Shown here: positions 5,063-29,300 of the stretch, in pieces
Numbering within the stretch: the stretch's first letter is position 1
Layout of the letters: each line of letters begins with the position of its first letter
DNA from: Octopus sinensis
Taxonomy: Eukaryota
Direction of reading: 5' to 3'
Assembly: GCF_006345805.1 (NCBI RefSeq)
Contig: NW_021831731.1
Coordinates: 62,001 to 126,000, forward strand
Length of the DNA: 64,000 nucleotides
Notes under the pieces: generated by a model
Told to the model about the DNA's origin: nothing
Database searches by the model: none
Seen by the model: the letters and a program-made list of their open reading frames with translations, nothing else
Made by a program: the position numbers and the translations under genes

Positions 5063-5185
5063 TTTTACGATCCCTTTTGATCGAAAACCTACCCCACTTC
5101 ATTTTCTTTTCTGCCCCAAAAGAAAAGCTCTACTCTGTAATTTGTCCCCTTTGTGTTCAGCCCTGTGTGGCTAATAAAGAAACAT
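5063..5185 (+). mobile_element. Tx1-like LINE 3' end, copy A
   Basis: Matches 29177-29300 and ends CAGCCCTGTGTGGCTAATAAAGAAAC. TATC on both sides. Confidence 0.9.
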
Positions 5186-5220
5186 TATCTATCTATCTAT
5201 CTATCTATCTATCTATCTAT

Positions 5221-5323
5221 TTTTTTTTCTTTTGTTTTTTGTTCTCTTCATCCCCCAAAAGAAAAGCTCTACCTTGTAACTTGTGCCATCTGTGTGCAGC
5301 CCTGTGTGGCCAATAAAGAAACT
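5221..5323 (+). mobile_element. Tx1-like LINE 3' end, copy B
   Basis: AAAGAAAAGCTCTACCTTGTAA...CAGCCCTGTGTGGCCAATAAAGAAAC. TATC on both sides. Confidence 0.9.
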
Positions 5324-5427
5324 TATCTATCTATCTATCTATCTATCTATCTATCTATCTATCTATCTATCTATCTATCTATCTATCTATCTATCTATCT
5401 ATCTATCTATCTATCTATCTATCTATC

Positions 5428-5856
5428 TGAACCCAGAAATTGAAAACAGAGGGCTACCCACTTGCAAACAAATGTGGTAACATATAACAATATTGACCAA
5501 GGTTACCGTGGTCTTTTTCGTAGGCTTTTCTTCCCACGGATAAACCTTACTTGCTTTCCCCTTTACACCATACATCAAAACACTGTGATACACGATCCCT
5601 ATTAATCGTTTTTTTCCCTCTTCCCCTTTTTTACCCCTTTTTTCATTTCTCTTTTCTTTTGTTCCTTTTCCTTTTCTTCTTTTTTTCTTTTCTTTTTTTT
5701 CTTTTTTGTTCTTTTTTTCCCTTTTACGATCCTACGCTACCTTTTTTTGTTTCTTTTGTTTTTTGTTTTTTGTTTTTTTTTCATCCCCCAAAAGAAAAGC
5801 TCTACCTTGTAACTTGTCCCATCTGGGTGCAGCCCTGTGTGGCCAATAAAGAAACT
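5428..5856 (+). mobile_element. Tx1-like LINE entire 3' UTR, copy C
   Basis: Starts at TGAACCCAGAAATTGAAAACAGAG (the stop codon position of copy D, 28911) and has the same 3' end. TATC on both sides. Confidence 0.9.
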
Positions 5857-6241
5857 TATCTATCTGTATGAGAAATTATTTCTGCATTTTCACTGAAATC
5901 TTTGTAAACAATAGAGTAAATGTGCACTTACTCACCAAAGTGGGTTTGGCACAGCTTTTTTTCCAAACAGAAAGATGATTTGTACTAAGTACTCCAAGCA
6001 AGTGAAACAATCCATTGTCAATAAATTTTTAGTGTCAGGACACTCTAACAGACCGTCCATTTGGTTCAGACTTCACCGAAGTTAATGAGTTGCAACTCAG
6101 TTGAAATACCGGTGATTTTGTTGTCCAACAGGCATGTTCGTTTATGTAAACATGAAAGCAGCTTCTTTAGGGTTGCCCACTGGTACCGATAGGAATGAGA
6201 TGTTAACAAATAAGAACACGAGCGTTCGCACATGCACGAAT

Positions 6242-6800
6242 ATATGTATGTATGTATGTATGTATGTATGTATGTATGTATGTATGTATGTATGTATGTA
6301 TGTATGTATGTATGTATGTATGTATGTTTATATGTATGTATGTATATATGCATGTGTGTGTGTATGTATGCATGTATATATGTATGTACGTATGTATATG
6401 TATGTGTGTATGTATGTATGTATGTATGTATGCATGTATGTATGTATGTACGTATGTATATGTATGTGTGTGTGTATGTATGTATGTATGTAGTATGTAT
6501 GTATGTATGTGTATGTTTATATGTATGTATGTATGTATATATGCATGTGTGTGTGTATGTATGCATGTATATATGTATGTACGTATGTATATGTATGTGT
6601 GTATGTATGTATGTATGTATGTATGTATGTATGTATGCATGTATGTATGTATGTACGTATGTATATGTATGTGTGTATGTATGTATGTATGTATGTATGT
6701 ATGTGTGTGTATATATGTATGTATGTATGTATGTATGTATGTATGTATGTATATATGTGTATATGTATGTATGTGCGTGCGTGTGCATGTATCTATGCAT
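6242..6800. repeat. Complex (TATG)n array with higher-order ~190-bp duplication
   Basis: The variant pattern TATGTTTATATG...GCATGTGTGTG...GTACGTATGTATATG is repeated at about 6322 and 6512. Confidence 0.9.
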
Positions 6801-6982
6801 GCATCTTTCTCTCTTTCCAGATTGCAACAACATACATGCATTAAGTGTATTCAATTTCAATTCAGGGCAACAATTTTTTGTTCACACATTTGTCTCGTAC
6901 ACACACACACACACACACACACACATACACACACACACACACACACACACACACACACACACCACACACACACACACACACA

Positions 6983-25985: not shown

Positions 25986-25989
25986 GTGC

Positions 25990-26445
25990 TAACGAACCAG
26001 GTGCTTGAGTACAACAAACCGGACTTAATGGTGGTGGACAAAGTAAAACATGTATGCTCTGTAATCGATAGTCGCAGATAGTTAAGAAGGAAGGCAAGAA
26101 AGTAGACAAGATACACTGACTGTGGAAGATGAAAAAGTGAAGATAGTGCCAGTTATTGTTGGGGCTTTGATTGAGAGGAACGTAAAGAGAATGGGAATTA
26201 AGTGTTTTGTAGAGCTTTGCAAAAAGTTTGCCTCCTTCAATTTAAAAGAATTCTATCGGCCGCTAGATATACCCCAAAATTAACTGAAACAGTTGGAAAA
26301 TTCAACCGAACAAACAAATGGAAAAGAAAAAAAGGAACTTCATGGTCAATTCATGCAAAAAACCGAGAAGGTTGGAAGTAAAGATCGCTGGCTCTGGCTG
26401 ATGAACGGAGACTTGAAACGAAAGACAGAAACGCTAATGATAGAC
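25990..26445 (+). mobile_element. R4/Dong-like LINE fragments (RLE domain; pre-CCHC region)
   Basis: VLEYNKPDLMVVDK...VID, IVPVIVGAL, and LHGQFMQK...WLWLMNGDLKRKTETLMI. Confidence 0.75.
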
Positions 26446-26869
26446 GGATGAGGGTACATTACAATGACAAATTACAAAAATGGTAGGAGTGGGATTATGT
26501 ATAATCGATTCTGACAAATAGTTATGGAAACAATAGTATGATAAGGTTTTTTGAAATGGGATGTCCAAATAAAGAGATTGAAAAATCCAGTGAAGGAACT
26601 TCACAGATCTAAGATTACTCTGACTATTAAAAATAAATACACTCGCTCCGCGTTGTATTCTCCAGCCTACATGTGTATACTGAGATTAGGTTCAATCACC
26701 AGGGCCATACTCGTTACATTTCTACAATATTACAGGAGGTTAATACCCCCACCTCCAATTTCACCTTCGTCTGCAAATTAAAGTGCATGTCTGGAATCCT
26801 TTCAATCTTATCTCAGTAAGATCACTTTTACTTTGTCCATCATACATTAGAATACGGCATTTCCTTCCG

Positions 26870-27350
26870 ATCAAAGAAAGGGACAGAGAGATCTTTACAA
26901 TAGATAGCCAAATTCATTCAAATCGTAACAACAGAAAGTGGACGTAACTACACAAGTCAGCGATGGTCGGATACTCAATGTATGTGCATGCTAAAGGGAT
27001 TCGTTATTCTGTGCACCTCGGACACTGCTGACGGCGCTATTGTACATGTAGATTTTTATCTCTTCTCTGTAGCAATAATAATAATAATATACATAAAGAA
27101 AAGCGATTGCTCGATAAAGTAATAAAAGGCAAGCTATCTTGAAATTTACACTTATTGATTTGATTTGCCTAGCAGAGAATAAGATTTCAGTGAAGATGGA
27201 TGAAAACGTTTTAGAAATATAAAAATTTAGAAAAATAAATATTGAAGATTTGGAATATGGCTACAAGAAGAGTCCCTGGTAATTGTAGGAGCGTTAGAGT
27301 TACTGAAACATAATGCAAAGCAAAAATCGAAGAACTGCAAGGTAAATATT
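26870..27350 (+). mobile_element. Highly decayed R4/Dong-like fragment
   Basis: Remnants KIWNMATRRVP / VIVGAL near 27245-27300. Confidence 0.45.
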
Positions 27351-27693
27351 CAATATGTGTAATTCAGAGGAGAGCGCTTCTAGGTAGTGTTCACATTCTG
27401 TGAAAATCATCAATAAGATAAAGAAAAGAGGAAGGCTTATAACCACAAATATACATATACATAAGCATACATACATAATACATACATACATACATACATA
27501 CATACGTACGTACATACATACATACATACATACGTACGTACGTACATACTTACATACATATATACATACATGGATAAATAGATATATGTAACCACACACA
27601 AATTGGCAGTCATCTCTCTATACACTGTATAACCATACACATGAGTATAAATATCTATCTGTCTATCTATCTGTCCATCCATCCATCCATCAT

Positions 27694-27940
27694 CTATGTA
27701 TGTATGTATGTATGTATGTATGTATGTATGTATGTATGTATGTATGTATGTATGTATGTATCTATCTATCTATCTATCTATCTATCTATCTATCTATCTA
27801 TCCATCTATCCATCCATCCATCCATCAATCCATCTATCTATCTATCTATCTATCTATCTATCTATCTATCTATCTATCTATCTATCTATCTATCTATCTA
27901 TCTATCTATCTATCTATCTATCTATCTATCTATCCATCTA
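27694..27940. repeat. (TATG)n-(TATC)n compound microsatellite
   Basis: Directly visible. No LINE insert in this tract. Confidence 0.95.
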
Positions 27941-28406
27941 ATAATTCTTCTCTTGATACAAAAATATAGAAGAGTTCACTACAACTTGAAGCGTATACAG
28001 GCTGTTTTACATTTATTTAAGTGAGATAACAAGGATTACACAGCATTCGCTCGGTCGGCCGTATACTTGATCTATGTTGAAAACTAATATATATAGTTAA
28101 TGTAAGCGGTGTAGACGTTAGGCTGCATGACAGTGTTCTCTTTCCTATTCTCAATGAAGAATTTTGTACCATGTCGATAAGTCAGTTATTTCTACCTTTT
28201 TATATTAAATTGGGTAGAATAGCGAATGATGAGGAACTTTTCAGTGAGGCAGAGAGTCACATGAAGTGTGTGTGTATGTACATGTATGTATGTATGTGTA
28301 TGTATGTATGTATGTATGTATGTATGTATGTATGTATGTATCTATCTATCTATCTATCTATCTATCTATCTATCTATCTATCTATCTATCTATCTATCTA
28401 TCTATC

Positions 28407-29300
28407 CCTGGCCTGGCCTGGCAGTGCTACCGAGAAGCGCTACCCGTTCGGGATAAGCTCTACAGACACGGCTCGAGAAACACGGGGCCGACCTGCCCGA
28501 GATGCGGTCAGAGCGACGAAACCGTTCTGCACGCACTCGTGCAGTGTCCAACAATTTCCGACCTGTGGGCTTATGTCGAACAACTGCTGTCACGTGTGGG
28601 ACGAGTCGGTTTATCAGCTGAGTCTATCGTTAATATTGTCACGCCTCCCTCCTTCAAACGGGAAGGAAGAGCTATTTTCATAATCCTTGTGGCTATGGCG
28701 AAAGAATGTATCTGGTGGACGCGTCTGAAAGGATTGGAGACAAACACTTTCCTCTCTGGTCAATCTCTCATCAACTTCTTCAAGTACCACTTGAAAAGGA
28801 AAGTGAGAGTAGAGAGGCAAGTTTTGTCTAGCGAATGTTTTAAAGAAAGATGGGTGAATGTAGCAAGAATGGCACGTATGAATGACGAAGCCACCTTGAG
28901 CATGATCCTATGAACCCAGAAATTGAAAACAGAGAGTTGCTTATTTGCAAAAAAAAAAAAAAAGAAATATAACATGTGACTCCATTGACCGAGGTTACCG
29001 TGGTCTTTTCCGTAGGCTTTTCTTTCCACGGGTAAACCTCACCTGTCCCCCCTTTACACTTCATATTGACATTTCTGTGATAACGACCCCTATTGATCAA
29101 TTTTTTTTTTTTTTTCTTTTTTTTCTTCCTCTCCCCCTTTTTTTTAACCCCCCTTTTTTTGTCCTCTTTCTCTCCTTTTACGATCCCTTTTGATCGAAAC
29201 TCCCCCTTCCTTTTTTTTTTTTTTTAAACCTTCAAAAGAAAAGCTCTACCTTGTAATTTGTTCTATCTGTGTGCAGCCCTGTGTGGCTAATAAAGAAACA
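28407..29300 (+). mobile_element. 5'-truncated Tx1/L1-clade LINE, copy D
   Basis: ORF2 C-terminus plus 3' UTR and AATAAAGAAAC end. (TATC)n on both sides (28339-28406 and 29301-29364). Confidence 0.92.
28413..28913 (+). pseudogene. LINE ORF2 C-terminal zinc-knuckle (zf-RVT, CCHC) region
   Basis: AWQCYREALPVRDKL...CPRCGQSDETVLHALVQCP...LW...AKECIWWTR...FKERW, the L1/Tx1-type signature, with no stops. Confidence 0.9.

Follow-up and report, generated by a model that had tools for sequence, protein, structure and literature searches.

The 64,000-bp stretch of Octopus sinensis contig NW_021831731.1 analyzed here (hereafter the window) carries four 5'-truncated copies of a long interspersed element (LINE), each of them set in a (TATC)n microsatellite. 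The feature is real, and its 5' junctions carry TATC far more often than chance would predict. On the evidence of two independent sites, the targeting of this repeat is probably real as well, and it works like that of the microsatellite-targeted families of the Tx1 clade. Judged by their predicted protein, the copies belong to an L1-group LINE, with a likely Tx1-type affinity, and they fit a young multi-copy family. The copies and their flanking tracts are as follows:

4939–5062, forward strand: (TATC)n tract at the 5' side of copy 1, ~31 units, following TATG/TA-like sequence
5063–5184, forward strand: copy 1, end of the 3' untranslated region (3' UTR) only, type A, with three diagnostic bases in common with copy 4
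5186–5220, forward strand: (TATC)n of 8.8 units between copies 1 and 2
5221–5323, forward strand: copy 2, end of the 3' UTR only, type B
5324–5427, forward strand: (TATC)n of 26 units between copies 2 and 3
5428–5856, forward strand: copy 3, essentially the whole 3' UTR, starting at the position of the stop codon of the second open reading frame (ORF2), type B
5857–5865, forward strand: TATC remnant TATCTATCT, 2.25 units, 3' flank of copy 3, followed by unique DNA
28269–28406, forward strand: compound (TATG)n then (TATC)17, 5' flank of copy 4
28407–28913, forward strand: copy 4, C-terminus of ORF2, 168 amino acids without a stop, zf-RVT with CPRC...H...C
28914–29300, forward strand: copy 4, 3' UTR of type A, pyrimidine-rich, with AATAAA at 29289 and without poly(A)
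29301–29365, forward strand: (TATC)16, 3' flank of copy 4, passing into (TCTG)n and (TA)n

The four insertions had been proposed in a first-pass annotation made from the letters of the sequence, and all were recovered where it had placed them on the forward strand, copy 4 spanning 28407–29300 in total. They share a common 3' end, CAGCCCTGTGTGGCYAATAAAGAAAC, which gave four exact matches against 0 in 100 shuffles; the motif as originally quoted gave no match, because one C had been dropped from it. The 5' ends are truncated at four different points, as had also been described, with about 120, 100, 430, and 890 nt kept in copies 1–4, respectively. The combination of variable 5' truncation and a fixed 3' end, a feature of L1-group elements, was thus present in 4/4 copies. 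The reported absence of poly(A) was borne out in every copy: TATC begins 1–2 nt past AAGAAAC, the repeat picks up at the same unit start in all four, and AATAAA lies 6 nt from the end. Within the last 68 nt, copy pairs show 2–9 differences, and three positions divide the copies into type A (copies 1 and 4) and type B (copies 2 and 3). Copies 2 and 3 differ at 2 of the 68 positions, while copies 3 and 4 are 69% identical over 440 columns, the gap falling mostly within pyrimidine-rich tracts. These 68 nt folded no better than shuffled sequences (z 0.65–1.12), and therefore no stem-loop is claimed; no Rfam family was found in the window. No fifth copy emerged in the window from a sensitive self-BLAST of copy 4 or from a search for short remnants. 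Segmental duplication was ruled out, as the copies are unlike in their ends and sequence and their flanks are not common to them. To this extent the copies are independent insertions, as the annotation had held, but copies 1–3 form a single cluster.

TATC was present on both sides of every copy, as had been claimed, with the qualification that the right side of copy 3 holds only 2.25 units. Within the cluster, one tract serves both as the right flank of copy 1 and as the left flank of copy 2, and another does the same for copies 2 and 3, which leaves just two independent TATC sites. In a test of the 5' junction that was set beforehand, TATC was found at the 5' flank at 2/2 independent sites and in 4/4 copies. 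Tracts of TATC/GATA with at least three units amounted to 654 bp in 10 tracts, or 1.05% of the non-element window, whereas TA, TATG, and CA tracts covered 2017, 1309, and 899 bp, respectively, in agreement with the annotation's statement that these repeats are the commoner ones. Altogether, 5090 of the 64000 bp (~8%) were counted as microsatellite, and TATC made up 13% of these bases. Five of the eight TATC tracts on the forward strand adjoin an element and three are element-free. One element-free array, at about 27695–27940, has the same TATG-then-TATC build as the left flank of copy 4, showing that such tracts form without an element. Three TC/GA and three TTTC/GAAA tracts were also counted in the window, none of which is the flank of a copy junction.

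Chance estimates were calculated for these junctions. Under a null model in which TATC is a tail only, the probability of TATC at the 5' side in element orientation was 2.7e-5 with two events and fell to 7.5e-10 with four; without the orientation factor it was ~1e-4 for two events (1.05% squared), and given landing in some microsatellite it was 4e-3 for two events and 1.7e-5 for four, all of these values being uncorrected for the window having been picked because of its TATC pattern, which counts against targeting. Orientation adds little and its factor is doubtful, because 8 of the 10 tracts and all four copies lie on one strand.

The C-terminus of copy 4 is open, as the annotation had noted: the frame at 28407–28913 contains no stop and matches zf-RVT (PF13966) with an E-value of 3e-8, above the cut-off. 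Longer ORF2 fragments were 60–75% identical to this C-terminus, one of them being an Argonauta hians protein with a reverse transcriptase (RT) and zf-RVT, and a 37-residue piece of the Octopus bimaculoides gene model P0009 was 97% identical to the C-terminus of the copy 4 family. The window protein itself has no RT, and protein P0005, 71% identical to the window C-terminus, was used as its stand-in for RT comparisons. The RT region of P0005 scored 172–174 bits on human L1 ORF2p and 63–88 bits on R2. Residues 140–627 of P0005 scored 229–256 bits on four Tx1-type ORFs, including two from elements inserted in 5S rRNA, compared with 172–174 bits on human L1. Identity as an RTE, CR1, or R2 element was ruled out by zf-RVT together with the L1-type RT. 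A search of representative proteins gave 523 matches at E 0.001, of which 7 reached 1e-30; the 150 matches listed included no close homologue of full length. Beyond these, viral and metagenome contigs contained no match to the 3'-end motif; candidates from the C-terminal alignment yielded no confirmed relative, either in metagenome contigs (0/82) or in genome contigs (0/30), and neither did those from the RT alignment in viral contigs (0/34).

Scanning prokaryotic genome contigs with the RT alignment returned 42 loci, 38 of which lie in one assembly (G001) labelled Arenicella. The contigs concerned (L001–L037 and L042) are eukaryotic-looking, and this assembly appears contaminated. G001 holds 66 ORF2 matches from several subfamilies, including intact two-ORF LINEs, and these form head-to-tail arrays with a period of ~6.4–6.8 kb in which truncated copies are included. 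ORF1 of this lineage has 649 amino acids and a CCHC knuckle (zf-CCHC), which is a feature of Tx1 elements, and ORF2 has 1155. Each unit ends in AATAAA and a 15–18 nt spacer specific to its subfamily, with neither poly(A) nor a microsatellite, and no Rfam family was found in 12 array loci. Together with the ENA proteins P0011–P0045, the lineage comprises the nearest full-length relatives, whose ORF2 of ~1150 amino acids contains an apurinic/apyrimidinic-like endonuclease (APE), RT, and zf-RVT and is 38–45% identical to P0005. The tandem-array lineage resembles the TATC family in that its 3' end has AATAAA and lacks poly(A); it differs in its head-to-tail arrangement with a short spacer and no TATC, and the 3' UTRs are dissimilar. 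In the gene model P0009, the ORF2 end of the TATC family (97%) is fused to a piece that matches ORF1 of the array lineage at 31% identity (E 4e-8); the model may be a reading of two tandem LINEs as a single gene.

The four remaining loci are more distant, and two of them (L039 and L040) have their A-tail end inside a 5S rRNA gene. These insertions lie at two nearby 5S positions (L039:4422–4534 and L040:2726–2844), in contigs from gut bacterial assemblies that are probably host DNA, and the family name of such elements is Mutsu. They are the best reference point whose target is visible. Their RT region is 31–35% identical to the octopod stand-in, and their A-tail and 5S target differ from the poly(A)-less TATC sites of the octopus family. 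The 5S rRNA gene is a known Tx1 target according to a figure legend in PMC4494074. In a 35-row RT tree, which was midpoint-rooted and did not include the window protein (no RT) or named Tx1 and L1 sequences, the octopod stand-ins grouped with support of 97/99. They and the tandem-array lineage shared a branch with support of 100/100, separate from the 5S-inserted elements. The sister lineage, with its TATC-free arrays, speaks on either side: it shows that neither clustering in tandem nor an end without poly(A) depends on a microsatellite, and it suggests that the link to TATC is peculiar to the octopod branch.

Sequencing runs were used to view the copy 4 family beyond the window. The copy 4 stretch or a part of it was present in 20 of the 24 listed runs, 18 of which contained at least half of its words. 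Contigs were aligned from 4 of the 24 runs, leaving out 29091–29300 as repeat, and 17541, 16905, 7119, and 5637 contigs matched copy 4, with the caveat that depth does not equal copy number. In run X1, 11460 of the 17541 contigs were at least 95% alike to copy 4. At 2 of the 40 positions shown (111 more were not), the base of copy 4 disagreed with at least 99% of the depth in each of the four runs. In these runs, 85, 112, 60, and 59 contigs with loose ends before 28412 run on in coding sequence, indicating that copy 4 is truncated. The family bases just upstream of 28412 are ATC, the same as the end of the TATC repeat, and the copy 4 junction has one extra CCTGG, the first 5 nt repeating the next 5 nt. 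Copies 1–3 have a one-base overlap at the 5' junction. Short microhomology and small duplications are usual at the 5' ends of truncated LINEs.

Taken together, we consider it likely that the 5'-truncated copies insert into pre-existing (TATC)n by target-primed reverse transcription, and we infer, ranking it first, an endonuclease preference that is helped by RNA–DNA pairing, the two being inseparable here. An APE endonuclease would nick the purine-rich GATA strand, and the freed 3' end would prime complementary DNA synthesis on an RNA ending at, or a few bases into, UAUC repeats. Such a UAUC end would be carried over from a donor copy that was itself placed in TATC. Synthesis would then stop early, and the 5' end would join the repeat via microhomology of 1–3 nt. 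Since TATC is left on both sides after insertion, the site would stay a target and gather copies, as at 4939–5865, where two types are found. The annotation's reading, a recently active site-specific retrotransposon with an APE endonuclease recognizing TATC/GATA repeats, is supported in part.

Several further points weigh against insertion into pre-existing TATC. The reading rests on two independent sites in one window, and a target duplication is unreadable inside a perfect repeat. The APE endonuclease of the copy 4 family was absent from the window and from its four longest close homologues, and protein searches found no close homologue with its own APE, for which reason the endonuclease of the TATC family is one that we infer; the full-length relatives do have an APE, at ~42% identity. 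Among the 24 of 1873 loose ends that were shown, with 29091–29300 left out, there was no TATC junction. The sister lineage adds to these points. Of 14 regions in G001, 4 show the 3' end of an array meeting other DNA, with a microsatellite at 0/4, and no TATC tract was present in the 476,242 bases of 56 overlapping sister loci. Moreover, this lineage builds tandem arrays by itself, and hence the cluster at 4939–5865 needs no targeting.

An explanation close to the preferred one is that pairing of the tail acts alone: an RNA ending in UAUC repeats would be combined with a loosely specific endonuclease whose nicks would fall widely but prime efficiently only within GATA repeats. This would yield the same genomic targeting pattern through another mechanism, one already put forward for microsatellite-tailed RTE, CR1, and L2 elements. 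The missing poly(A) despite AATAAA 6 nt from the end and the identical repeat-unit start in 4/4 copies would agree with such pairing, as would a sister lineage without sign of microsatellite recognition. Base pairing between a 3' repeat and the target is also discussed for RTE, CR1, L2, and R1Bm in the accessible part of PMC6007223. Pairing needs few bases, however, and short or no 5' TATC would often be expected from it, whereas the two independent 5' flanks have 17 and 31 units; we regard tail pairing alone as unlikely. Also against it, the full-length relatives have a stretch of 15–19 residues at the position of the APE hairpin, presumably the specificity loop of Tx1L and R1 endonucleases.

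Somewhat less probable still is that TATC is a mere tail, the cluster having arisen from a head-to-tail habit or template jumps, and the left-hand TATC tracts of copies 1 and 4 being the tails of lost copies or there by chance. The sister arrays, with their truncated copies, 15–18 nt spacer, and no microsatellite, speak for it, as do the 2 of 68 positions separating copies 2 and 3 and the join of a C-terminus to an ORF1-like piece in P0009, which fits tandem placement. Against it, no 3'-end remnant of the element was found to the left of either 5' tract or elsewhere in the window, and both left tracts grade into ordinary TATG/TA microsatellite. The tail of copy 3 would be 2 units long, compared with 26 on its left (2.25 against 26 as counted), the opposite of what a tail predicts, and the tail-only probability for the two sites is 3e-5 to 1e-4. 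We give very little credence to the idea that the element broadly prefers microsatellite-rich DNA, or survives there, and matches TATC by chance, or that the pattern is an assembly artefact at repeats. Microsatellites do occupy the ~8% of the window given above, and no aligned contig spans all of copy 4; against this, TATC is 13% of the microsatellite bases, with p = 4e-3 for two sites given a microsatellite landing, and the copies differ in sequence, which a collapsed or duplicated assembly would not give. Insertion into pre-existing TATC tracts thus stays our preferred reading.

Among known systems, Kibi targets (TC)n, Koshi targets (TTC)n, and crocodilian Tx1 families target (TTCC)n or (TTTC)n, further Tx1 targets being listed in Fig. 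3 of the same paper (PMC4494074). There, a Tx1 family counts as target-specific when one flank type is found in >20% of copies, and GATA/TATC is not mentioned in the main text. The octopus family resembles these elements in being an L1-group LINE in a pyrimidine-rich microsatellite with the repeat on both sides, and TATC is one base from TTTC. It differs in its repeat unit and in its host, a cephalopod as opposed to a fish or crocodilian, and every copy flank is TATC, not TC, TTC, TTCC, or TTTC. The accessible text of PMC10088271 describes Tx1-1_ACar of the anole as a telomere-repeat-specific Tx1 element; it is likewise aimed at a short tandem repeat, but at a telomeric hexamer, in contrast to the interstitial tetramer of the TATC family. 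Among APE clades, site-specific LINEs occur only in Tx1 and R1, as stated in the part of PMC6007223 available. In Octopus vulgaris, 80 L1-Tx1 families have been annotated, of which 13 were recently active (PMC13282606), and the TATC family may be one of them; the accessible text states no target preference for them, and its supplement gave 0 matches for TATC, GATA, or target. No LINE targeted to TATC/GATA was found among the full-text literature matches listed, a scope that did not extend to Repbase Reports, Dfam, Kojima and Fujiwara 2004, or Fell et al. 2025, which may hold one. The TATC repeat and the cephalopod host are thus apparently unreported for a microsatellite-seeking Tx1-type element.

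It is conceivable, although we hold it only tentatively, that the lineage is separate from the vertebrate Kibi and Koshi, descends from poly(A)-less ancestors that inserted in tandem, and switched independently to (TATC)n, with the UAUC end of its RNA partly aiming the insertion. If this were so, it would provide a related pair of targeted and untargeted endonucleases for mapping how APE specificity evolves, at high copy number and in a microsatellite-laden genome.

The known microsatellite-targeted Tx1 families are vertebrate, and the octopus TATC family, if true, would extend the strategy to molluscs and to a new repeat. It would also show a high-copy LINE spreading via repeats while sparing coding sequence, and would supply an endonuclease with which insertion could be studied or engineered at GATA repeats, a frequent component of vertebrate genomes. 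In octopus, insertions may be present within GATA/TATC markers. The understanding of LINE targeting is left unchanged by the family.

Other elements were also observed in the window. A mariner transposase frame of 297 amino acids lies at 1056–1949 on the forward strand (PF01359 and PF17906), between TA repeats at 859–900 and 2259–2284. At 46045–47724, a Tc1-like transposon has 249-nt inverted repeats (90%) and a transposase frame of 361 amino acids on the reverse strand. The reverse-strand frames at 4273–4725 and 10458–11003 resemble RTE-type LINE fragments by eye, with no Pfam match at E 0.01. An inverted repeat at 39604–39968, with 136-nt arms that are 94% complementary and 93 nt apart, is possibly a miniature inverted-repeat transposable element, and a 109-nt unit is present in three degenerate copies at 7000–7326.

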